Source: Dongiaceae bacterium
GTDB taxonomy: Bacteria > Pseudomonadota > Alphaproteobacteria > Dongiales > Dongiaceae
Direction: 5' to 3'
Assembly (NCBI GenBank): GCA_039808885.1
Contig: JBDHTX010000010.1
Location: 2,403-66,402, forward strand
DNA length: 64,000 nucleotides
The translations under genes were made by a program, and so were the position numbers. The notes under the pieces are model-generated. The model searched no databases. It was not told the DNA's origin and was given only the letters and a program-made list of their open reading frames with translations. Within the stretch, counting starts at the first letter, position 1. Each line of letters opens with the position of its first letter. Shown piece after piece: positions 51,961 through 64,000 of this stretch.

Positions 51961-53292
51961 ATGAAGACGAGCCCCAACAAGAGCGTACCCAAGGTCGGCA
52001 TCGTCAGCCTCGGCTGTCCGAAGGCGCTGGTGGATTCCGAGCGGATCCTCACCAAGCTGCGATCCGAAGGCTATGTCGTCTCCGACACCTATGACGGCGC
52101 CGACGTCGTCATCGTGAACACCTGCGGCTTCCTCAACAGCGCCAAGCAGGAATCGCTCGACGCGATCGGCGAGGCGCTGAAGGAAAACGGCAAGGTCATC
52201 GTTACCGGCTGCATGGGCGGCAACGAGCAGGCGATCCGGTCGGTGCATCCGGGCGTGCTGTCGGTCACCGGCCCGCAGCAATACGAATCCGTCGTCGCCG
52301 CCGTGCATCAGGCGGTGCCGCCGAAGCACGATCCCTATGTCGACCTGGTGCCGCCGCAGGGCCTGCGCCTGACGCCGCGGCACTACGCTTATCTTAAAAT
52401 TTCAGAGGGCTGCAACAATCGCTGCACCTTCTGCATCATCCCCAGCTTGCGCGGTGACCTGGTCAGCCGCCCGGCGCGCGACGTGCTGGTCGAGGCCGAG
52501 AACCTCGCCAAGGCGGGCGTGAAGGAACTGCTGGTGATCTCGCAGGACACCAGCGCCTATGGCGTCGACATCAAGTATGCCGAGAGCCTGTGGCGCGGCG
52601 ACCTGGTCAAGGCGCGGATGACGGAGCTGTGCCAGGCGCTCTCCCAACTCGGGATCTGGGTGCGCCTGCACTACGTCTATCCCTATCCGCATGTCGACGA
52701 GGTCATCCCGCTGATGGCGGAGGGCAAGATCCTTCCCTATCTCGACATCCCGTTCCAGCATGCCTCGCCCCGCGTGCTGAAGGCCATGCGCCGGCCGGCC
52801 AACCAGGAGAAGGTCCTGGGCCGCATCGCCAAGTGGCGCGACATCTGCCCCGACCTCACCATCCGTTCGACCTTCATCGTCGGCTTCCCCGGCGAGACCG
52901 AGGCCGAGTTCGACGAGATGCTGGACTGGCTCTACGAGGCCAAGCTCGACCGCGTCGGCTGCTTCAAATACGAGCCGGTCGAGGGTGCTGCGGCGAACTC
53001 CCTCGGCGAGCTGGTCGACGAGGACGAGAAGCAGGACCGCTACGACCGCTTCATGGAAGCCCAGCGCCAGATCAGCGAGGAGCGCATGGCGGCCAAGATC
53101 GGCCGCACCGTGCCGGTGCTGATCGACGAGGTGGACGAGGACGGCGCCACCGGCCGCTCACCCGCCGACGCGCCCGAGATCGACGGCAACGTCTATCTGG
53201 ACGGCGAGACCGGCCTGAAGCCCGGCGACATCGTCAAGGTCGAGATCGACGAGACCGACGAATACGATCTCTGGGGCACCGTCGTCCGTTAA
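51961..53292 (+). CDS. rimO: Ribosomal protein S12 methylthiotransferase
   Basis: [17 protein letters not shown], radical [12 protein letters not shown]-terminal TRAM domain. Confidence 0.96.
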
Positions 53293-53323
53293 GGACGCAG
53301 CTTCCCTTTCACCTGCAAGAGTC

Positions 53324-53422
53324 CGTCATCCCAGGGCTTGGCTCTGGGATCCACGAGTTTGCCTGCTACACGATTTTGCCCATTCAAACACGTGGATGGC
53401 ATGGCCAAGCCATGCCATGACG
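53324..53422. repeat. REP-like palindrome, CGTCAT...GGATCCA family (copy C)
   Basis: CGTCATCCCAGGGCTTGGCTCTGGGATCCACG and CGTGGATGGCATGGCCAAGCCATGCCATGACG. Confidence 0.75.
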
Positions 53423-53448
53423 ACTGAGTGCATGTTTAGGGTGGAGGC

Positions 53449-54285
53449 TCAGCGCGAGGTCAGCGCCGCATAGACTTCCATCAGGCGCTTGGTCACCGGG
53501 CCGATTGGCATTTCCCTGCCATCGAGACGGCGTAGCGGCACCACTTCGAGCAGCGAATTGCTGACGAACGCCTCGCCCGCCTCCCGCAGCATTTCGCGGC
53601 TCACGATCCCCTCTTCCGCCGGGATCGCCAGATCGGCGCAAAGCCGCAGGACCACGTGACGGGTGATGCCGGGCAAGGCGCCCTCTTCGATCGCCGGCGT
53701 CAGCAGGCGGCCATCCACCACGGCGAACAGATTACTGCGCGCGCCGCAGGCGACGCGCCCCTTGCCGTTCAGCAGCAGCGCCTCGTCGCCGTCCTGCCGC
53801 GCCGCCTGGCGCAAGGCCAGGATGTTGTCGAGATAGCTCAGGGTCTTCAGCCGCGCGGTCAGCGAGCCCTCGTTGCGGCAGACGCCGCTGGCGGTCACCG
53901 CGATGAAGCCATCCTGCGCGGGCTGCGGATGATAGGCGGCCGCGGTGATCATCAGGTTGGGCCGCGGATCCTCCGGCGGCAGCAACCCCCGCTGGCCGGG
54001 GCCGCGGGTCAGCGTGATGCGCATGGCCGCATCGGTTCGGTCAAGCTGGTTGGCCGCCAGGGTCTCCAGCGCCGCGCTGGCGATCGCCGGCGAATCCTCC
54101 GGCAGCGGAATGCCGAGCTCTGCGGCACCCGCGGCCAGGCGCTGCAGGTGATCCTCGAACTTGAACACATGGCCGCGATAGGCGCGCAGCGTCTCGAACA
54201 GCCCATCCGCCAGGAGCAGGCCGCGATCCGCCGGGTCGATATGCGCCTGGTCGCGGGTGACCAGGCGGCCGTTCAGCCAGATCAT
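53449..54285 (-). CDS. pabC: Class IV PLP enzyme, probable aminodeoxychorismate lyase
   Basis: DRGLLLADGLFET, KTLSY, LPGITR; coupled to pabB. Confidence 0.8.
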   Translation of the reverse strand: MIWLNGRLVTRDQAHIDPADRGLLLADGLFETLRAYRGHVFKFEDHLQRLAAGAAELGIPLPEDSPAIASAALETLAANQLDRTDAAMRITLTRGPGQRGLLPPEDPRPNLMITAAAYHPQPAQDGFIAVTASGVCRNEGSLTARLKTLSYLDNILALRQAARQDGDEALLLNGKGRVACGARSNLFAVVDGRLLTPAIEEGALPGITRHVVLRLCADLAIPAEEGIVSREMLREAGEAFVSNSLLEVVPLRRLDGREMPIGPVTKRLMEVYAALTSR

Positions 54286-55715
54286 GCCGCCGAGCCTTGC
54301 GCCGGGTGGCCGGCGGCCCCCTGGGCCAGCACCTCGATCAGGGCCTTGGCCTTGGCCAGGCTTTCCTCGTATTCCGCCTGCGGATCGGAATCGGCGACGA
54401 TGCCGCCGCCGACCTGGAAGGTGAGCTCGTTGCCCTGGATGCAATAGGTGCGGATGACGATGTTGCTGTCCATCCCGCCATCGGCGCTGAGATAGCCGAT
54501 GGCGCCGCAATAGGGCCCGCGCGCGGTCGGCTCCAGCTCCGCGATGATCTCCATGGCGCGGATTTTCGGAGCGCCGGTCACCGAGCCGCCGGGGAAGCAG
54601 GCCCGCAGCAGGTCGACGGCGTCGCGCCCGGGTCCGAGCCGGCCCGTCACCACCGAGACCAGATGATGCACGGTGGCATAGCTCTCCAGGCCGAACAGCA
54701 CCGGCGCCTTGACCGAGCCGATCTCGCAGACGCGGCTGATGTCATTGCGCAGCAGATCGACGATCATCAGATTCTCGGCGCGATCCTTGACGCTCTCCAG
54801 CAACTCGGCGGCAAGCGCGGAATCCTCGGCCGGAGTCCGGCCGCGCGGCCGCGTGCCCTTGATTGGCCGCGTCTCGACATTGCCATCCGCCAGCCTGAGG
54901 AAGCGCTCGGGCGACGAGGACAGGATCGCGGTGTCGCCGAAATCGAGATAGGCGGCGAAGGTCGCCGGATTGCGCGTGCGCAGCGCCTGATAAAGCGCCA
55001 GGCGGTCGCAACCCGCCGGCAATCTGGCGCGAAAGCGCTGGGTGATGTTGGCCTGGTAGATGTCGCCGGCCTCGATGTAGTCGATGGTCCGCCTGACCGC
55101 GGCTTTGAATTGCTCCCGGCTCAGGTCGGGTTTCGCGTCGATGCTCCAGGTGGCGGCGGGCGTCGCGCGCCGGGCCCGCAGCAGCCGTTCGCGCGCCCAG
55201 GCGATGCGCGCCGCCGCGCGATCCCGGCGGGCGGCCGCCGTGGTCTCCGGGAATCCGCTGGCCAGCAGCCAGGCACGACCGGTCACATGATCGACGGCGA
55301 GGACCAGGTCATAGACGCCAAGCATGAGATCCGGGAAATCGATGTCATGCCGGGCATGCGCCGGCACCCGCTCCACGCAATGGCGCAGCCCATAGCCGAA
55401 ATAGCCGGCGAGGCCGGTCTGGAACGGCGGCAGGTCGGCGCCGGGCTCGACGGCATAGCGCCGCGACAGTTCCGCCGCCGCGGCAAAAGGATCGTCGCCG
55501 AAATCGGCGCCGTTCAGCCGCACCCGGCCATTGGCGGCCTCCAGCCGCGCGAAGGGATCGATGCCGAGAAAGGAGTAGCGGCCGAGCTCCGCGTGGCGCA
55601 GGGCGCTGTCGAACAGCGCCAAGCCCGGGCGGTCGGCGAAGGCGCGACACCAGTCCACGGGGCAATCGGGCAGTTCCTCGGGCGCCAGCTCGGCGGCGGT
55701 CAGGGCGGACTTCAT
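54282..55715 (-). CDS. pabB: Aminodeoxychorismate synthase component I
   Basis: GDIYQAN, SSSPERF, PIKGTRPR, KDRAENLMIVDLLRND, SVTGAPKIRAM, YCGAIG. Confidence 0.92.
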   Translation of the reverse strand: MKSALTAAELAPEELPDCPVDWCRAFADRPGLALFDSALRHAELGRYSFLGIDPFARLEAANGRVRLNGADFGDDPFAAAAELSRRYAVEPGADLPPFQTGLAGYFGYGLRHCVERVPAHARHDIDFPDLMLGVYDLVLAVDHVTGRAWLLASGFPETTAAARRDRAAARIAWARERLLRARRATPAATWSIDAKPDLSREQFKAAVRRTIDYIEAGDIYQANITQRFRARLPAGCDRLALYQALRTRNPATFAAYLDFGDTAILSSSPERFLRLADGNVETRPIKGTRPRGRTPAEDSALAAELLESVKDRAENLMIVDLLRNDISRVCEIGSVKAPVLFGLESYATVHHLVSVVTGRLGPGRDAVDLLRACFPGGSVTGAPKIRAMEIIAELEPTARGPYCGAIGYLSADGGMDSNIVIRTYCIQGNELTFQVGGGIVADSDPQAEYEESLAKAKALIEVLAQGAAGHPAQGSAA

Positions 55716-55768
55716 GGCTCCGAAGCTAGCATGGGCCACCCGGCCAGTCATTCCGGGAGCGGCGGGAT

Positions 55769-57268
55769 TCAGCCCTCCGGTGTCGCTGGCCGGCCAGTGG
55801 CCGCCTGCTCATCCACCCCACGCACCAGGGCCTCGCCCAGCGCGTTCTTGACGATCAGGTCGATCTGGCGAACGACCTGCAGCGCCTCCTTCAAGCGGTT
55901 CTGCTCCAGGTCCAGCAACCGGCGCACTTCCACCTGCGACGTGGCCGGCAGGCCGTTGCCGAGGTCGGCCAACTGCTGATCCAGGATCAAACCCAGGATC
56001 ATCTCATGGGCATCTAGCAGGCAGGCCAGATCGTCCTCGCCCAGGATCCCCGCTTCCATGGCGGCGCGCCAGCGCTCGCGCGAGGATCGCGCCCGGCAGC
56101 CCAGCCGCAGGGCCAGCACCCGCGCACCGGCAACGATCGGAAACAAGCCGCCGACCTTGAGGTCGATGCGGCCCTTCTGGGTCTTGAAGCGGCCGAACCA
56201 GCCGAGCGCGTCCTTCTTCTCCGAGATCGCCTTGGCCATCAGGTTGAGGAACAGGCGCGCCGTGCGGGCGCGCATCGAGACGTCGTTCAGGGCCTCGGCC
56301 AGCGCGCCGTCGCCGCCCGCGGCGGTGAAATCATAGAAGATGTCGGCATTGAGGATCGCACGCGGCTCCGGCCGCTCGAACCAGATGGAGATGCTTTCCT
56401 GCCAGCCGGCCAGGTTGTGGCGCAGGTTGCGTTTCGACGCCATGACTCCGCCGCGGCAGAATGCCAGCCCAGCCTGGTTCAGCACGTGCGCCACGCGCTC
56501 GCCGAATTCCTGGAACCAGGGGTAGTCGTCCTCGGCGCCGCCGTGGATCAAGGAGTTGTCCTGGTCGGCGGAAAGCAGGCTCTCGCCCCGCCCCGCCGAG
56601 CCGAGCACGAGCAGGCACCACGAGGCCGGAGCCTCTCCGCGACGCTCCGCTTGCATGGACGCCGATGCCAGTTCGCCCGCGCGCGCGGTCATGTCCCGGA
56701 TGACACCGGAAATCACCGCGGCGACCTGGTATGCCGGAACGCCCTCGGCGCGCAGCGACCGCCCCAGTTCGGGCAGCCGCCCATATGCCGCCTTCAGGCC
56801 CCGCCAATCGGTCGCCTCGGCGACCATGTCGGCGATGCCGAGAGCAACCATTGCGCGCTGGCGCAGCACCGACCGCGCGTCCAGCAGGCCGGCATAGCGG
56901 CCGTCGGGCGCAACAGCCGCGAGATGACGGAACCCAAGACGGCTCATCCGCGCGATCGCCACGTAGAGAAGGGCATCGGCCCGCACCGTCGCGACCGGCG
57001 TGCTCATGATCGCGGTGATCGGCGCGGTCATCGGGGCGCCGCCGGCGGTGACCTTGCACAGCACGTCGCGCTCGGTGACGATTCCGATCGGACGGCCGTC
57101 GCCATCGAGGACAATTGTCGCGCTGGCCGGTCCGTGGACCAGCGCCTCCACGGCCGCCGCGACGCTGGCGCCGGGTTCCAGCGTGCGCGCCACGGGGTTC
57201 ATCAGCTCGCCGACCCGATGCTGGAACGGGAACGGGTCAACGCGCGTCACGGGAGCCGTCTCGGTCAT
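55769..57268 (-). CDS. CBS-pair + DUF294 nucleotidyltransferase + DUF294_C protein
   Basis: Two CBS domains (GIVTERD; RHLAAV); LGSAGRGE...DQDN nucleotidyltransferase motif; IDLKVGGLFP; no cNMP-binding domain. Confidence 0.88.
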   Translation of the reverse strand: MTETAPVTRVDPFPFQHRVGELMNPVARTLEPGASVAAAVEALVHGPASATIVLDGDGRPIGIVTERDVLCKVTAGGAPMTAPITAIMSTPVATVRADALLYVAIARMSRLGFRHLAAVAPDGRYAGLLDARSVLRQRAMVALGIADMVAEATDWRGLKAAYGRLPELGRSLRAEGVPAYQVAAVISGVIRDMTARAGELASASMQAERRGEAPASWCLLVLGSAGRGESLLSADQDNSLIHGGAEDDYPWFQEFGERVAHVLNQAGLAFCRGGVMASKRNLRHNLAGWQESISIWFERPEPRAILNADIFYDFTAAGGDGALAEALNDVSMRARTARLFLNLMAKAISEKKDALGWFGRFKTQKGRIDLKVGGLFPIVAGARVLALRLGCRARSSRERWRAAMEAGILGEDDLACLLDAHEMILGLILDQQLADLGNGLPATSQVEVRRLLDLEQNRLKEALQVVRQIDLIVKNALGEALVRGVDEQAATGRPATPEG

Positions 57269-58602
57269 GACGCGCCAATTCCCCGCACCCTGCCGCCCGC
57301 GCGGGCCAGGCGCTTGGCCGCCTCGGCCTGCAGCGCCTGCGCGCCCGCCAGGGTCGCGACCCCGCGCCCGACCAGGATCGGCACCAGGCGGGAATAGATC
57401 TCCGCCGTGGTGAGCGCGTCGCCCAGCGCGGAATGACGCCCGATCACCGGCACGTCGAAGGCGATTGCGAGGTCGTCCAGCAACAGCGATTTCGCCTCCG
57501 GAAACAGCGCGGCATAGAGCAGCATGACATCCAGGCTCGGTCCTGGCGACCAGTCGCGCCCGCATCGCCGCATCTCGCCTTGCAGCATCCGCAAATCGAA
57601 ATCGGTGTGGAAACCGATCAGGGCCAATCCGCTCGCCGCCGCCGCAACCTGCTCGGCGACGGCGGCAAAGGGCGGCGCGCCGGTGACCATGCTGTTCGAG
57701 ATGCCGTGAATGGCGATCGTGCGATTGGGGATGCTGCGGCCGGGATTGACCAGCAGGTTGAGCGTGGAAGACCGGTAGAGCCGCTCACCGTGCAGCCGGA
57801 TCGCGCCGATCGAGATGACCCGGTCGATGCGGGGATTCAAGCCAGTGGTCTCGGTATCGACAGCAAGCGCCGAGAGCTCCGAGAGGGCCGTTCCCGGCCC
57901 GGGCGTCACCGGCACGGGCGGGCGGTCGTGCAGCGACAGATCATGCTCGCCGCGCAAGGTTGCCGCCTCGGCCGCCGGATACCGCAGCAGCGCGCTGCCC
58001 TCCTGGCCGATCACCGTGACCGTCGCCGGGAAGGAGTCGGACCATATGGTGAAGAGCTCCGTATCCACCGGCCGTCCCGCGGCGCGGGCCCGGTGGATGG
58101 CCTCACCCAGGGATTGCCGCGACAGGGTTTCGAACACGCTCTTGCCGATGACCCGCTCGGCGTCGCCGAACAGCGGCCGGCCCGCCGTGTTCACCAGGCT
58201 GATCAGACCTTCCTGGGTCAGCACGGCGATGCCGTCCGGCAGCGCGTTCAGCACCTCTTCCAGGCGGCGGTACACCGTCGATTGCTGGTCCGTGCGCAGG
58301 CCGATCATGTCGATGATGGCGAGTTGGACGCGGTCCACGGCGTCGGCGTCGGGCGCGACGTCGCGGCGCGCCAGGTCCTGCTGCCCGGCCACCAGGTTGA
58401 CCCAGCCCCGCAGGGCCTCGACCCGCAGTTCCAGCTGCCGCCCTTTGCGGAGCAGCAGCAGGCCGCCGCCGCCAGCGAGGACCGCGAGGCACGCGGTCAC
58501 CAGATGCGCCGCCAGGCCCGGCGGCGCGGCGTCAAACCAGACCATGGCGGCCAACCCGCCGGCACCGAGGATTACCGCTCCAAGACCGAATTCCGTGCGC
58601 AT
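57265..58602 (-). CDS. Membrane-anchored 2TM-PAS-DEDDh (DnaQ-like) 3'-5' exonuclease-fold protein
   Basis: Two hydrophobic helices; PAS LNALPDGIAVL; VDTETTGL, HTDFD, HSALGDA. Confidence 0.85.
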   Translation of the reverse strand: MRTEFGLGAVILGAGGLAAMVWFDAAPPGLAAHLVTACLAVLAGGGGLLLLRKGRQLELRVEALRGWVNLVAGQQDLARRDVAPDADAVDRVQLAIIDMIGLRTDQQSTVYRRLEEVLNALPDGIAVLTQEGLISLVNTAGRPLFGDAERVIGKSVFETLSRQSLGEAIHRARAAGRPVDTELFTIWSDSFPATVTVIGQEGSALLRYPAAEAATLRGEHDLSLHDRPPVPVTPGPGTALSELSALAVDTETTGLNPRIDRVISIGAIRLHGERLYRSSTLNLLVNPGRSIPNRTIAIHGISNSMVTGAPPFAAVAEQVAAAASGLALIGFHTDFDLRMLQGEMRRCGRDWSPGPSLDVMLLYAALFPEAKSLLLDDLAIAFDVPVIGRHSALGDALTTAEIYSRLVPILVGRGVATLAGAQALQAEAAKRLARAGGRVRGIGAS

Positions 58603-58700
58603 TCACCCTGCCCCGCCGGCGCCCACAGGAGCCCTTCGACCAGCTTCACAGCTTAAGGCTAGCCCTCCGGCAAGGGAATTCCATTGCCCAGAATGCCGCG

Positions 58701-58726
58701 CCGGGACCTTGCCCGGGACCTTGCCC
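58701..58726. repeat. Exact 12-bp tandem duplication in a divergent promoter region
   Basis: CCGGGACCTTGC twice (58701-58724). Confidence 0.8.
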
Positions 58727-58839
58727 AAGACCCGCCCGGCCCGTCGGTCTTTGCTGTTGCCAGCCATTTCGAAGGGTTGAATGATGCCCTGACGGGCGCG
58801 CCGAAGCGCGAATCCGGTGCGGCAGGGCAAGGTCCGGCG

Positions 58840-61419
58840 ATGGCGGTTTCTCAGGTCGAATCACGCGAACAGGGCTGGAGCGACGCCCTTCAGCCGGCGG
58901 CGTTGCGGCAGGCGGTCCTGATCGCCGGCGGCTATTTCCTGTGCTTCTGGATCGGCTATTCCTTTGCCGCCGACCACAACATTTCCGTGGTCTGGCCGCC
59001 CAGCGGCTTCGCCCTGGCGATGGTCTACCGGTTCGGCGTCCGCGCCGTCGCCCCCATCTGGATCGCCGATGCGCTGGCGCAACTGATCTTGATCGGCGCG
59101 CCGTTCCTGCCCTCGGTCCTGCTTCCCGCCCGCGCCGTCGCCGAACCGCTGATCGCCGTCCTTCTGCTGCGCCTCGTCGGCTTCGACCAGCGGCTGCGGC
59201 GGCCGCGCGACATCGCCGCCATGGTCCTGGTGGGAGCGCCGATCAGCACGCTGCTCAATGCGCTGGCCACGCTCTACATTTCCTGCGTGCAAGGCGCCGT
59301 CCCATGGGCGGATTACTGGCATCACGTCCTGATCTATTGGGCCGGCAACGCCGGGGGCATCCTCACGCTGGCGCCGGGCCTGCTCATCATCTTCGATCGC
59401 GATGCCGCCTCGGGCAACGTGCAACACTGGATCGAGGCCCTGGCCTTGTGCCTGCTGGCCTCCTTCGTGCTGCAGATCCCGCTGATGCTGCCGGACGTGC
59501 CGGAAGGTCCGACCGCGGTCTATTTCATCTTCCCGATGGTGGCGTGGATTGCGATGCGGGTGCCGCGACGCGTCGCCGTCACGGTGACGCTCGGAATCTC
59601 GGCAGCGATCCTGCTGACGCTCCAGCTCGCCGCCGACCATCCGCTGGGCGGGCTGTCGCTGATGGACGCGCCGGTCGGCATCCAGAGCTTCATCGCCTGC
59701 CTCAACCTGACCTGCCTGCTGCTGGCGGCGCTCAACCTGGAAAAGACCGAGATCGCCGCCCGGCTGCGCGAGAACGAGCAATTCCTCCGCCTTGCCATCC
59801 TGGGCAGCAATGACGGCATCTGGGACTGGCACCCGCGGGAACAGAGACTCTGGCTGTCGCCGCGCTGGAAGGCTCAGCTCGGCTATGGGCCCGATGAACT
59901 GCCGGATACGCCCGCCACCTGGTCGGCCCTGGTCCACCCGGAGGATCGTGAGCGGGTCGCCCAGCGGTTCAGCGACTTCCTGGAGGACCGCAGCGAATCC
60001 TTCGAGCAGGTCCAGCGCTTCCGGCACAAGCTGGGCCATGACGTCCACATCCTGACCCGCGGCATCAAGATGATCGCGGATGACGGCACGGTCATCCGCG
60101 TCGTCGGCGTGCATACCGACGTGACCGAACTGGTCAACGTGCAGGACGAGTTGCGCCACCAGGCGGCCTCGCTCGCCAGCCTTGCCCGCGGCCTGGAGGA
60201 GCAGCGGCGCGCGGCCGACGCGGCCAGCGCCGCCAAGTCACAGTTCCTCGCCACCATGAGCCACGAGATCCGCACGCCGATGAACGGCATCATCGGCATG
60301 CTGTCGCTGATGCTGGATTCGCCGCTGGACCGGGAACAGCGCCGCTGGACCACCAGCGCGCTCGATTCTGCCGAGACCCTGCTCACCATCATCAACGACA
60401 TCCTCGACCTGTCCAAGCTCGACGCCGGCAAGACCGAGGTGGAGTCGCTCGATTTCGACGCCACCGCGCTGATCGACGGTGTCGTCGCGCTGCTGCAGGT
60501 CCGCGCCAACGCCAAGGGCATCGCGCTGCACACGCAGATCGCCGACAACATGCCGGCGCGGCTGCGCTCCGATCCCACGCGGCTGCGCCAGATCCTGTTC
60601 AACCTCGTCGGCAACGCTGTCAAGTTCACCAAGACCGGCGGCGTGCTGGTGCGCGCCGCGGTCGAATCCGTCCACGACGACACCTGCGAACTGCGCGTCG
60701 AGGTCGTCGACACCGGCATCGGCGTTGCTCCCGACCAGCTGCCCAATCTGTTCGAGCCGTTTCACCAGGCCGAGACCGGCATGACGCGACGCTACGGCGG
60801 CACCGGGCTCGGCCTCGCCATCGTGCGCCGCCTGATTCACCTGCTGGGCGGCAGCGTCACCGTGCGCAGCGAGATCGGCATCGGCAGCACCTTCACGATC
60901 CTGCTGCCCTGCCTGATCGCCGTCGCATCCCGCGGCCCGGCGCGGGACGTCGGCACCGGGCCGCTGCCGCGGCACGCCAAGGAGACCCGCATCCTGATCG
61001 CCGAGGACAATGCCATCAACCGCGAGCTGGCAACCCAGATGCTGGCGCGGCTCGGCCTGACGGGGACCACCGTCAACAACGGTCGGGAAGCCGTTGCCGC
61101 CGCGTCCGCAGGCCTTTTCGACATTATCCTGATGGACATTCAGATGCCGGAGATGGACGGCCTGGCGGCCGCCGCCGCAATCCGCAAGCTGCCCGGCCTC
61201 CTGGGCCGGGTGCCGATCGTCGCGGTCACCGCGAATGCCATGGTCGGCGACCGGGAACGTTACCTGGCGGCCGGATTCGACGACTACCTGGCGAAGCCGC
61301 TGCGTCTCGAGCAGCTCTCCGAGATCATCCTGCGTTGGACCGGAGAGCTGCCGCCATCCCGGTCGACGGGTACCGGCCGTGATGGCGACGCCGTCCCGAC
61401 CGATTCCGGAGAGCGGTGA
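58840..61419 (+). CDS. Hybrid histidine kinase MASE1-PAS-HisKA-HATPase-REC (start uncertain)
   Basis: MASE1-like N-terminus VVWPPSG; [11 protein letters not shown]; [11 protein letters not shown]; [10 protein letters not shown]; GGTGLGL; ILMDIQMP; no HPt. Confidence 0.9.
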
Positions 61420-61422
61420 CCG

Positions 61423-62940
61423 ATGCCGACAGCGTCGATGCGTCTGCGGGTCGGGCTGATCGTGGCCCTGGTTTCATTGTCGCTGGCCATCGCCTTCGTG
61501 GCGCAGAAATTGCACGCGGGTTCGGCCGATGCGGGTGCCGGTTCGGGCAGCTGGTACGTCGCCCTGGTGCTGATGCTGGTCAGCCTCGCGGTCCTCGGGT
61601 ACCTGCTTCTGGCCCTTGCGCGCGACAAGGCGGGCGAGAGCGCCGCCGCAAGAAACGAAGCCGCGCAAGCTTTGCTGGAGACCGCCGCCGCGACCGCGCC
61701 CAAGCCCGTGGACCTGCGCCCGAGCTATTCCGTCCTGCCGTCGCCCGAGGCCGGCCACCTGGTGGCGACCGGCGCCCTGATCCGCCGGTTGTGCCACGAG
61801 CTCAACAACGCGCTTGGACCGATCCAGGGCTTTGCGGAGCTGCTTGGCAACGATCAGCGGATCGGCGAGGCGCAGCGGCGGCAAGTGACCAAGATCGGCG
61901 AGGCGACGGCCGCCGCCCAGAGCGCGGTCCAGGACTTCGCCGCCGCGTTGACCTGGTCCAAGGACCACGCCACGGCGGTGAATCTGGGCGCGATGACGCG
62001 CGCCGCCGCCGCCGCCGCCCAGGCAGCGATCGGCCGGCCCATCGCGGTGACGCTGCCGCCCGGCCGGGACATCCAGATCACCGCGACCGAGGTGGAGACC
62101 GGGCAGGCGATCCTGCACCTGTGCGCGGCGCTTACACCGCTCATCGCCGAGCGCGACGTACGGCTGGAGATCGCGGTCGATTCGGCAGTCGGCGCGGCCC
62201 GCTCGAGTTTGGGCGACGGCGCCGCCTCCGGGCAGCGATTGCAGATCTGGTCCGACCCGTTCGATCCTGAGCACGCCAGGGTCCAGCTCGGCCTGCTGCA
62301 GAGCAGCTGGCGCTACGGCCGGGTCCAGCTCACCTGTGTCGGCCACGGCTGGTCACGTGACCTGGCGAGCCGGCTGTTCGTCGCCGACCTCACGGAAGAG
62401 CACCATCCGAGCTGCCTTTCGATGACCGTGCTCGGCGGGTTGATGCTGGATCTGGGCGGCGTGGTCATGATCGACACCTGTCCGCTGCGACAGCTGACGG
62501 TCACCCTGCTGTGGCCGGCGCGCATCCCCTCGGAGGTCGCCGCCCCGCTGGAGACCGACACCACGGAGGACGATCTCGACGCGCTCATCATCCACGCAGC
62601 CGAGCCGGCGGCGGAAGAGCTGTCGCGGCGGCTGGGTGGCTTCGGCTTGAGGGTGGCTTCCACCACCAGCCCGGAAGCCGGGCTAGACCTCATCGCCGAA
62701 ATGGGGGCGCGGTGCCGCGCCATCCTGCTCGGCGATACGCCGGACGCCGCATTGCTGGAAAAGATCCTCGCCATCCGACCGAGCGCCGTGGTCCTCACCC
62801 TGGAGGCCGAGCCCGGCACGACGCTGGAGGGCCAGGAAGCCTGGCAGATAGATCCCGATCGGGAGGCTCTGGGCCGCCTCGCGGCCCGCCTGCGCCGTGG
62901 CGGCACGCTTCCTCCCGAAGGCTGGGACGCCGCTAGCTGA
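61423..62940 (+). CDS. Membrane-anchored pseudo-histidine kinase / putative phosphotransferase with a degenerate receiver
   Basis: Two TM helices; H-box RRLCHELNNALGPIQGFAELL; N, G1 and G2 boxes degenerate; receiver lacks the acidic pair and the Lys. Confidence 0.7.
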   Translation: MPTASMRLRVGLIVALVSLSLAIAFVAQKLHAGSADAGAGSGSWYVALVLMLVSLAVLGYLLLALARDKAGESAAARNEAAQALLETAAATAPKPVDLRPSYSVLPSPEAGHLVATGALIRRLCHELNNALGPIQGFAELLGNDQRIGEAQRRQVTKIGEATAAAQSAVQDFAAALTWSKDHATAVNLGAMTRAAAAAAQAAIGRPIAVTLPPGRDIQITATEVETGQAILHLCAALTPLIAERDVRLEIAVDSAVGAARSSLGDGAASGQRLQIWSDPFDPEHARVQLGLLQSSWRYGRVQLTCVGHGWSRDLASRLFVADLTEEHHPSCLSMTVLGGLMLDLGGVVMIDTCPLRQLTVTLLWPARIPSEVAAPLETDTTEDDLDALIIHAAEPAAEELSRRLGGFGLRVASTTSPEAGLDLIAEMGARCRAILLGDTPDAALLEKILAIRPSAVVLTLEAEPGTTLEGQEAWQIDPDREALGRLAARLRRGGTLPPEGWDAAS

Positions 62941-63559
62941 ACTGCCCCAATTGCGCCAGTCGAACCGCGATCTGGGTGCGGTTCTTGGTCTCCAGCTTGC
63001 GACACAGGTTGCGCACGTGCAGCTTGACGGTGACCTCCTGCAGCTCGAGCGCGCGGGCGATTTCCTTGTTGGAAGCGCCCTTTACCAGCATGGCGGCCAC
63101 TTCGAGCTCGCGCGGCGTCAGGAATTCCGACCCGATGATCTTGAGCCCCTCGGGCGCCGCCCCTGGACGGAGCAGATCCGTCGGGGCGTAGGTCTCCCCG
63201 GCCGCCAGCTGACGGATCGCGGCGATCAGCTTGCTGCCAGAGAGCGTCTTGGGAATGAAGCCGCGGGCGCCAGCCGCCAGGGCCGACATCGCGTGCGACT
63301 TCGAGACCATGCCGGTGATGATCGCGACGGCCGAGCCCGGACAATGCGCGACCATCCGTTTCAGGCCCTCGAGGCCGTTCATCCCGGGCATATTGAGATC
63401 CAGCAAAGTCACGTCGTAGCAGCCATTGGCCAGAACCATTGCCCAGGCGTCTTCGAAATTCCGTGCCGTCTCGACACTGGATTCGGGCGCGTGACGCTCA
63501 ATCATGGCCTTGAACCCGTCACACACCAACTCGTGATCGTCCGCCAGAAGAATTCGCAC
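62933..63559 (-). CDS. NarL/LuxR-family response regulator
   Basis: ILLADDH, LLDLNMP, GFIPK, LTPRELEV...SNKEIA...TVKLHV; GTG start. Confidence 0.92.
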   Translation of the reverse strand: MRILLADDHELVCDGFKAMIERHAPESSVETARNFEDAWAMVLANGCYDVTLLDLNMPGMNGLEGLKRMVAHCPGSAVAIITGMVSKSHAMSALAAGARGFIPKTLSGSKLIAAIRQLAAGETYAPTDLLRPGAAPEGLKIIGSEFLTPRELEVAAMLVKGASNKEIARALELQEVTVKLHVRNLCRKLETKNRTQIAVRLAQLGQFS

Positions 63560-63662
63560 CCAGCCGCCCCAGCACTGTTGCGCGTGGATTTTCGGGACAC
63601 TACGTCCAAAAAGCGGTTGTGGAAAGATCAAAGGGTGGGTCCAGAGGACTACCCCATCCGGG

Positions 63663-64000
63663 CTAGAATCCCCGGAGGGGCAGGTCCGGCCCCCGGCGCA
63701 GCCAGTTGTCGGCGGGATAGCGGCACGCGCCATCGACCACGTGCAGCGTATAGGCATGCCGCGATCGGTCCGACAGGTTGGCGCCGGAGAAATGCGGCAG
63801 CAGGCCGTGGATCACCACGAGGGATCCGCGCCTCGCCTCCAGGGCGACTCGCGGGCCGTCCGACCAGGGCGTGGCATCCAGGCGTTCCGTCACCAGCCGG
63901 CCGTCGCGGCGCAGGAAGCGCGTCTTCATCGGCTGCTTGTGCGCCCCCGGCAGGCAGATCATGGCGCCGTTTTCCAGCGTCGCATCCTCCACCGCGAACC
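63663..64000 (-). CDS. 3' part of a second PhyH-family dioxygenase (truncated by the window edge)
   Basis: FAVEDATLENGAM...PGAH; IHGLLPHFSGANLS...RHAYTLH. Confidence 0.8.
   Translation of the reverse strand, partial: FAVEDATLENGAMICLPGAHKQPMKTRFLRRDGRLVTERLDATPWSDGPRVALEARRGSLVVIHGLLPHFSGANLSDRSRHAYTLHVVDGACRYPADNWLRRGPDLPLRGF

Follow-up and report, generated by a model that had tools for sequence, protein, structure and literature searches.

A membrane-anchored DEDDh exonuclease and a CBS-DUF294 nucleotidyltransferase form a coupled gene pair in a Dongiaceae bacterium

The analysis presented here concerns two overlapping genes in a 64,000-nucleotide stretch of DNA from a Dongiaceae bacterium (GenBank assembly GCA_039808885.1, contig JBDHTX010000010.1, positions 2,403 to 66,402 of the forward strand), referred to hereafter as the window. 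The first gene encodes a DnaQ-like exonuclease carrying a membrane hairpin and a PAS domain, and the second encodes a nucleotidyltransferase of the DUF294 family preceded by a pair of CBS domains. The evidence supports the view that both genes constitute a single functional unit. This unit is another member of the known module composed of a COG2905/DUF294 protein and a DnaQ-like exonuclease rather than a new kind of system, and represents the alphaproteobacterial ‘medium’ form of this widespread pair. A previous reading, made from the sequence alone, had proposed that the two enzymes act as a signal-controlled writer and eraser, and this proposal is plausible in the light of the comparisons made here. 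The sequence features described in that reading are all borne out. The module is among the commoner bacterial two-enzyme signalling modules without a known reaction. The window copy brings no new architecture, and its added value lies in a context free of SSF transporter genes, in its presence/absence polymorphism and in its compact architecture.

Organization and co-inheritance of the two genes

On the coding strand, the exonuclease gene precedes the DUF294 gene, and its TGA stop codon shares the tetranucleotide ATGA with the ATG start codon of the latter, an overlap already pointed out in the sequence-only reading and confirmed by the bases TCAT on the plus strand. The identical 4-nt overlap is found in three other members of the genus (G006, G002 and G012). 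In comparison with the closest relative, both genes show similar nonsynonymous divergence (dN of 0.043 and 0.038), and the ratio of nonsynonymous to synonymous divergence (dN/dS) amounts to 0.14 for the exonuclease gene and 0.13 for the DUF294 gene, both of which are under purifying selection. The nearest public relative is a Dongiaceae metagenome-assembled genome (MAG), with 92% identity across the full-length DUF294 protein, which places the organism in this alphaproteobacterial family.

A survey of the neighbourhoods of such pairs, suggested in the sequence-only reading, was carried out on one locus from each of 56 genera, anchored on DUF294 and scanned with hidden Markov models (HMMs) built for this analysis. 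A gene for a DEDDh exonuclease lies within 7 kb of DUF294 in 54 of the 56 genera, almost always directly adjoining it, and one of the two loci without it stops at a contig edge 1.1 kb past DUF294. The converse search of public genomes, anchored on the exonuclease, gave 80 loci, 52 of which have a DUF294 gene within 6 kb; the exonuclease domain of the window protein is 35–45% identical to the partner exonucleases of those 80 loci. Moreover, of 301 evenly sampled Pseudomonadota genomes, 97, or about one third, gave a match to a profile of 46 DUF294 homologues. In seven genomes both proteins are fused in a single open reading frame (ORF) of about 710–770 residues, in the order exonuclease–CBS–DUF294–DUF294_C. 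Four of these fusions were confirmed with Pfam (L071:5791-8094, L039:5950-8166, L065:1304-3448 and L067:217-2424) and three by the HMM scan of the 56 loci (L171, L173 and L178), and they belong to alphaproteobacterial lineages (Allomesorhizobium, Rhodobacteraceae, Hyphomicrobiales and Anderseniella).

Within the genus, the intact pair is present in six genomes, namely the one containing the window and the genus-mates G006, G002, G011, G012 and G009, at the same site and between the same flanks. Neither gene is present in G005, G010, G013, G003 and G008, which have an identical backbone in which pabB faces a MASE1 kinase gene about 200–260 bp away. One further genome, G001 (L119:7470-7860), retains an intact DUF294 gene next to an internally deleted remnant of the exonuclease gene, in which the last ~40 codons follow directly on the transmembrane (TM) region, the PAS domain and the greater part of the exonuclease domain being absent; this remnant could be a decay intermediate or an artefact of MAG assembly. 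No genome of the genus was seen to carry the exonuclease alone. In a tree of the flanking MiaB, PabB and MASE1 kinase proteins, pair-bearing and empty genomes interleave: G012 groups with G005 (support 83/99), and G011 with G010 (81/89), both then with G013 (90/99). The simplest reading is that several independent clean losses of both genes took place, at least three being apparent, a count that is provisional given the moderate support of the tree and the predominance of MAGs among these genomes.

The two genes are, therefore, inherited and lost as a unit, which bears out the co-inheritance anticipated in the sequence-only reading, with the apparently decaying exonuclease gene of G001 as the one partial case. 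The neighbouring position in 54 of 56 genera, the occurrence of single-protein fusions, the kept ATGA overlap, and joint presence or absence within the genus support the interpretation that the window genes form one functional unit, as that reading had supposed. A cassette of two genes that is present or absent at a fixed site provides direct evidence for both co-inheritance and dispensability. A functional link of the pair to the MASE1-PAS-HK-REC relay or to pabB and pabC was also considered and ruled out, as the same backbone is kept in the five pair-less genus-mates; neither the relay nor pabBC is functionally tied to the pair.

Predicted architecture of the two enzymes

Pfam assigns to the nucleotidyltransferase two CBS domains, a DUF294 domain (E 4.6e-34) and a DUF294_C domain (E 7.9e-35), and the catalytic motif GSxGRxE...DQD lies behind the CBS pair, as had been described, in the form GSAGRGE (residues 223–229) and DQD (residues 235–237). 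The residues G223, S224, R227, E229, D235, Q236, D237 and D313 are invariant in the 46 homologues, and D313 is probably the third carboxylate. The first CBS domain retains the ribose-binding motif G-h-h-T-x-x-D, in which T65 is invariant and D68 is found in at least 90% of the homologues. The cNMP-binding domain, whose lack had been remarked upon, gave indeed no Pfam match in this protein (PF00027); it occurs in 20 of the 46 homologues and is, hence, optional in the family. As for the C-terminal part, DUF294_C belongs to the HEPN-related KNTase_C clan, although it is devoid of the RNase motif (PMC3710099).

The AlphaFold2 (AF2) model of the nucleotidyltransferase has a mean predicted local distance difference test score (pLDDT) of 92.1 and a predicted template modelling score (pTM) of 0.79. 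When this model was compared with the PDB by Foldseek, the best matches other than CBS pairs came from E. coli GlnE, with its N-terminal (1v4a, E 4.5e-9) and C-terminal (3k7d, E 5.6e-9) domains, and from Legionella DrrA in complex with Rab8a (6yx5, E 9e-7). These are all protein AMPylases, in keeping with the kinship to GlnD and GlnE noted in the sequence-only reading. The other top matches are CBS pairs, several of them with bound AMP or ATP. The 50 best matches include no nucleic-acid polymerases and no cGAS/DncV- or OAS-like folds, with the limit that CBS pairs crowd these matches and nucleic-acid nucleotidyltransferases may rank further down. A PDB sequence search with the DUF294 protein returned CBS matches only and no solved DUF294 structure. 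A few members of the DUF294 family also touch the Pfam models GlnD_UR_UTase and GlnE, and the Pfam DUF294 model also matches in E. coli a protein that we take to be GlnD.

Like GlnE, GlnD and DrrA, the window protein combines a Pol-beta nucleotidyltransferase core with a helical substrate-binding domain behind it. However, it possesses neither the second nucleotidyltransferase domain of GlnE nor the HD and ACT domains of GlnD, Pfam detecting only CBS, DUF294 and DUF294_C, and the N-terminal CBS pair stands in place of these accessory domains. GlnD and GlnE are bifunctional enzymes that both add and remove a nucleotide, whereas in the window pair any removal would fall to the separate DEDDh enzyme, a division without precedent. 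Altogether, the nucleotidyltransferase is predicted to have the architecture of the protein AMPylases GlnE and DrrA behind a CBS pair of the type that binds adenosyl ligands.

The exonuclease had been described as carrying two TM helices and a PAS domain, and both are borne out by hydropathy, by the helical hairpin of the AF2 model and by a Pfam PAS match above the cut-off (PF00989, residues 113–182, 29.2 bits against 22.6, E 9.6e-7). The loop between the two TM segments (residues ~5–25 and 30–52) is just a few residues long and, therefore, the protein has no periplasmic sensor domain. Behind the hairpin, the AF2 model shows a long helix, then a PAS domain predicted with partial confidence, its C-terminal half being modelled at low confidence, and finally an exonuclease domain with a pLDDT of ~97. 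This last domain is matched by Pfam RNase_T (residues 247–403, E 4.9e-26) and retains the full DEDDh set claimed for it, namely D249, E251, D336, H390 and D395, within the motifs DTE (249–251), FD (335–336) and HSALGD (390–395); the five residues are invariant columns in an alignment of 37 sequences. The Asn of motif Exo II (residues 331–335, window 57598–57612), present as HNxxFD in at least 90% of the partner exonucleases, is replaced in the window protein, which reads FHTDFD. Within the genus this position varies (FH, HH or CH) and the catalytic Asp is retained. The protein is, thus, modelled as a canonical two-metal DEDDh domain with a hairpin as its membrane tether and a cytoplasmic PAS domain ahead of it.

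The best Foldseek matches of the exonuclease domain are the exonuclease domain of S. aureus DinG, PolC and E. coli epsilon (root-mean-square deviation 1.5–1.6 Å), with 25–27% sequence identity, ~26% in the case of epsilon. These enzymes share their fold and the full set of five DEDDh residues with the window protein, although the window genus does not conserve the Exo II Asn. Moreover, Pol III epsilon is a soluble protein of ~240 residues, whereas the window exonuclease carries a TM hairpin together with a PAS domain, and its partner is a nucleotidyltransferase instead of a polymerase or helicase. The scores against NCBIfam dnaQ_proteo (74 bits, cut-off 222.7) and PRK05711 (71.8, cut-off 196) fall below the thresholds for dnaQ equivalogs. 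The genome has two further RNase_T genes, either of which could serve as dnaQ, and therefore the window exonuclease is not needed as a replicative proofreader. The claim that its layout is that of a sensor rather than that of Pol III epsilon stands on these grounds, except that such a layout is not peculiar to the window gene.

Partner exonucleases come in several sizes at the 54 loci where they were found. About 38 are bare soluble domains of ~230 residues, as in Pseudomonas; six resemble the window protein (~470–530 residues, two TM helices), seven are longer (~700–730 residues, two TM helices) and three are fusions. In a profile built from 45 long-form proteins, the first ~485 positions match histidine kinases over their whole length (VicK/CovS, 4i5s, E 1e-21; ThkA, 3a0r, E 2.9e-15), from which a layout TM-HAMP-PAS-DHp/CA-like-exonuclease may be deduced. 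The consensus of the long form at the phospho-acceptor region is LTExxR, which suggests that the kinase-like block serves as a non-phosphorylatable scaffold. The N-terminal part of the window exonuclease aligns to the PAS region of the long form (hhalign probability 86%, E 4.8e-6), and in the joint alignment only the PAS and exonuclease parts align, the DHp/CA block of ~250 residues being a gap in the window protein. The latter is, hence, the common kinase-like sensor exonuclease in a shortened form.

Long-form proteins occur in Burkholderiales, Rhodocyclales, Desulfuromonadales and others and belong to the same exonuclease clade as the window protein, to which they are 44% identical. Both forms have the two-TM hairpin, a PAS domain at an equal position and a DUF294 partner; the histidine-kinase-like block is found in the long form only. 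Genes for a single-domain receiver and a 920-residue kinase adjoin the long form in L006, L124 and L128, whereas none stands beside the window pair. According to Pfam, the typical cassette consists of the 920-residue kinase gene, a 124-residue receiver gene and the long-form gene, in this order, plus DUF294, an SSS transporter and, often, acs. The N-terminal ~650 residues of this kinase have no Pfam match (L006:1251-4019; another example is L124:3183-5930), and a 46%-identical copy of this region lies in the genome of the window within a 1274-residue frame, on a contig apart from the pair (G000:C43:5234-7087). In Magnetospirillum sp. SS-4 (L003:5563-10622), one DUF294 gene stands between two exonuclease genes, the short TM-PAS form (496 residues) upstream and the long kinase-like form (705 residues) downstream.

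Genomic context and possible function of the pair

Members of both families adjoin each other in Pseudomonas putida KT2440 (PP_0354/PP_0353) and P. aeruginosa (PA3233/PA3232), as well as at Sama_1525 and Psest_0349, in the same way as in the window. Sama_1525 and Psest_0349, described as COG2905 genes with an RNase T domain, show cofitness with a DUF4212/SSS transporter, for whose expression they were speculated to be needed (Price et al., 10.1101/072470). In P. putida, PP_0354 (a cNMP-CBS-nucleotidyltransferase) and PP_0353 (the exonuclease) form an operon under direct MxtR/ErdR control, and the authors speculated on mRNA degradation by PP_0353 (PMC9927547). Growth on acetate is unaffected by deletion of these genes (PMC9927547; 10.64898/2026.09.07.749794). 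The deletion of PP_0353 impaired growth on pyruvate according to the 2022 paper (PMC9927547), and a 2026 preprint reports that PP_0353 and PP_0354 deletions are moderately inhibited on pyruvate and propionate and suggests a protein modification analogous to PII uridylylation (10.64898/2026.09.07.749794). In P. aeruginosa, PA3232–PA3235 are co-induced with actP (PMC9765439). The Pseudomonas and window pairs both have an intact nucleotidyltransferase motif and DEDDh set. However, the gene order is reversed in the window, DUF294 coming first in Pseudomonas; the Pseudomonas exonuclease is a bare soluble domain of ~230 residues, whereas that of the window has a TM hairpin and PAS domain; and the Pseudomonas DUF294 protein contains the cNMP-binding domain, also mentioned in the COG description, which the window protein lacks. 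Furthermore, the Pseudomonas operon is a target of MxtR/ErdR (CrbS/R) near actP, acs or glcB, whereas no SSF, DUF4212 or linked acs gene was found for the window pair.

The proximity of such pairs to acetate permease and acs genes, put forward in the sequence-only reading, holds for the module in general but not for the genome of the window. Within 7 kb of the pair, the 56 genera have an ActP-like SSS transporter in 38 cases and an acetyl-CoA synthetase in 16, together with the 920-residue kinase type in 10 and a small receiver in 12, and the transporter-linked context is kept in other genera of Dongiaceae (L124–L126, L128, L129 and L131–L134). In the 96%-complete assembly containing the window, no match was obtained to the SSF family (PF00474), to DUF4212 (PF13937) or to the cassette-type transporter, and the acs genes lie on other contigs, unlinked to the pair. 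Likewise, the genus-mates G006 (95% complete) and G009 (100% complete) carry the pair and no SSF match. Another genus-mate, G002 (C246:1009-5907), carries a second DUF294 copy, 39% identical, adjoining an SSF transporter gene, so that the genus holds both transporter-linked and transporter-free versions of the module. Since the pair is kept under purifying selection in genomes without a detectable SSF transporter, the direct target of the module is probably not the SSF transporter protein.

A mechanism consistent with these data can be outlined as follows. The nucleotidyltransferase would add one or a few nucleoside monophosphate (NMP) units to a hydroxyl group of a target protein, and the exonuclease would remove them by hydrolysing the O–P bond with release of 5′-NMP, this bond having the same geometry as the one that the exonuclease would cleave at a nucleic-acid 3′ end. 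Writing would be gated by the CBS pair, in response to the energy or adenylate state, and erasing by the membrane/PAS module. The output would be regulatory, as may be gathered from the cofitness data of Price et al., the control by MxtR/ErdR and the mild phenotypes on pyruvate and propionate, and in other bacteria it would affect SSS-type monocarboxylate uptake; in the window genus, given the lack of a detectable SSF transporter gene, the target would have to be a different one. We estimate the probability that the two enzymes oppose each other on one substrate, with a protein-linked mono- or oligonucleotide as the mark, at roughly one in three. GlnE, GlnD, DrrA and MntA transfer an NMP onto protein hydroxyls, and a mark on a protein is favoured because the nearest nucleotidyltransferase structures are all protein AMPylases, because GlnD and GlnE are themselves add/remove enzymes, and because hydrolysis of a Tyr/Ser/Thr-O-P-5′-nucleoside linkage releases 5′-NMP, which is also the product of DEDDh cleavage at a 3′ end. 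The more specific proposal that the DEDDh enzyme is a de-nucleotidylylase erasing mono- or oligo-NMP marks written on protein by its GlnE-like partner is doubtful. If true, it would provide the first example of a DnaQ fold at work on a protein–nucleotide linkage, the pair would constitute a widespread AMPylation/UMPylation switch gated by the adenylate state (CBS) and a membrane/PAS signal, and the SSF-free genus would show that the target is not the monocarboxylate transporter itself.

Several points weigh against this mechanism. We know of no DEDDh enzyme that takes a nucleotide off a protein, and the exonuclease is nearest, by sequence and by fold, to the DNA-acting PolC, epsilon and DinG. 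No candidate target of the pair was identified in the analysis, no biochemical assay was found in the literature for any DUF294 + exonuclease member, and the crowding of Foldseek matches by CBS pairs, noted above, may have kept nucleic-acid nucleotidyltransferases out of the comparison. Finally, the function of the module is dispensable, in view of its repeated loss within the genus and of the mild deletion phenotypes in P. putida.

Other ways in which the two enzymes could work together were weighed against the same evidence. The nucleotidyltransferase might add untemplated nucleotides to a specific RNA 3′ end (of an mRNA, an sRNA or a tRNA-like molecule) and the exonuclease trim them, thereby setting RNA stability or activity, which is possible if on balance unlikely. 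Poly(A) polymerases and CCA-adding enzymes are among the Pol-beta nucleotidyltransferases, the window exonuclease is a bona fide 3′–5′ exonuclease of the DnaQ/RNase T superfamily with an intact active site, a polymerase fused to a 3′-exonuclease is a familiar layout, and the speculation on mRNA degradation by PP_0353 (PMC9927547) points in the same direction. However, in structure the nucleotidyltransferase comes closest to GlnE and DrrA, both protein AMPylases, rather than to RNA nucleotidyltransferases, Pfam found no RNA-binding domain in either protein, and no Rfam family reached its gathering score in window positions 53000–59500. A rather doubtful alternative is that the two enzymes are coupled without being opposed, one regulating the other, e.g., by nucleotidylylation of the exonuclease or of its PAS/kinase-like module, with the exonuclease as the output acting on a specific nucleic acid. 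This would fit the near-obligate pairing and the fusions, as well as the many partner exonucleases with a kinase-like scaffold beside a single-domain receiver, which suggest a regulated output. In the same clan, moreover, enzymes of the MntA type modify their own partner protein. On the other hand, about 38 of the 54 partner exonucleases are bare domains of ~230 residues without a sensor module, and no conserved Tyr, Ser or Thr acceptor site was identified in this analysis.

It is improbable that the exonuclease degrades a linear or cyclic (oligo)nucleotide messenger produced by the nucleotidyltransferase, as Orn and NrnC do with pGpG, even though the genes for a synthase and its degrader often lie together, dinucleotides are degraded by DEDDh enzymes such as Orn and NrnC, NanoRNase C is a weak PDB match and both enzymes carry sensor domains. 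To our knowledge, GlnE/DrrA-like nucleotidyltransferases do not make free oligonucleotides; moreover, no conserved effector or receptor gene stands beside the pair at the surveyed loci, and the lack of cGAS/DncV- or OAS-like folds among the 50 best Foldseek matches counts against a messenger as well. Strongly disfavoured is the possibility that the two genes are unrelated neighbours, the exonuclease serving in DNA repair or proofreading and DUF294 in another role, or that they take part in anti-phage defence. The ~26% identity of the exonuclease domain to E. coli epsilon and the generic DEDDh matches given by PADLOC (Cas-associated DEDDh and PDC-S48) would be in its favour, but the side-by-side genes in 54 of 56 genera, the single-protein fusions and the joint loss contradict it, and so do the two other RNase_T genes of the genome, a membrane anchor and PAS domain ill-suited to a replisome subunit, and a typical context of transporter and acs genes instead of defence islands. 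A defence system was, in fact, rejected, as PADLOC gave those generic matches for the exonuclease and no model match for DUF294. For biochemical work, the window proteins are conveniently compact, with soluble parts of ~385 and 499 residues, a trimmed TM-PAS exonuclease and a nucleotidyltransferase without a cNMP-binding domain.

Feature coordinates and neighbouring genes

Table 1. Coordinates of the gene pair and of its predicted domains in the window.
Feature	Window positions	Strand	Basis
Exonuclease gene (membrane-anchored PAS-DEDDh, 445 aa)	57265..58602	-	ORF/translation; Pfam RNase_T and PAS; AF2; Foldseek
Two-helix membrane hairpin (aa ~5-52)	58447..58590	-	Hydropathy, aa 5-25 and 30-52; AF2 helices 2-25 and 28-72
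Cytoplasmic PAS domain (aa ~112-208)	57979..58269	-	Pfam; hhalign to long-form PAS region; AF2 strands 124-137 and 194-208
DnaQ-like DEDDh exonuclease domain (aa ~241-410)	57373..57882	-	Pfam; motifs; 37-sequence alignment; Foldseek
ATGA stop/start overlap (translational coupling)	57265..57268	-	Plus-strand bases TCAT; kept in G006, G002 and G012
Nucleotidyltransferase gene (CBS-DUF294-DUF294_C, 499 aa)	55769..57268	-	ORF; Pfam; AF2; Foldseek
CBS pair (aa 19-140)	56849..57214	-	Pfam; 46-homologue alignment; Foldseek
Pol-beta-type nucleotidyltransferase core (aa 164-302; GSAGRGE 223-229, DQD 235-237)	56363..56779	-	Pfam; alignment
DUF294_C helical substrate-binding domain (aa 339-473; KNTase_C/HEPN-related clan)	55850..56254	-	Pfam; PMC3710099 Table 1

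The window pair sits between pabB–pabC and the divergent gene of the MASE1-PAS-HK-REC hybrid kinase. Only 17 bp (55752–55768) separate the stop codon of DUF294 from the start of the pabB ORF, and a terminator search of positions 53000–59500 found no terminator-like site between them; pabB–pabC may, therefore, be read through from the promoter of the pair in the genomes that carry it. The Rfam scan of the same region gave one sub-threshold match, WsnRNA46, in the miaB/pabC intergenic region (53305–53440, plus strand; 27.9 bits against 65.3, E 0.02), which is probably due to chance. The promoter search of this region likewise yielded no usable site.

On the other side, the hybrid kinase gene (MASE1-PAS-HisKA-HATPase-REC, 58684–61419, plus strand) is followed by genes for a membrane-anchored HisKA-only protein (61423–62940, plus strand) and for an ORF without a Pfam match (62897–64000, plus strand). 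The gene at 61423–62940, a stand-alone pseudo-kinase gene, was considered as the kinase-like block missing from the window exonuclease and ruled out, since no similarity was found by BLASTP or hhalign (hhalign probability 0.7%). The three-gene cluster is kept in every examined genus-mate with a long enough contig, whether the pair is present or not.

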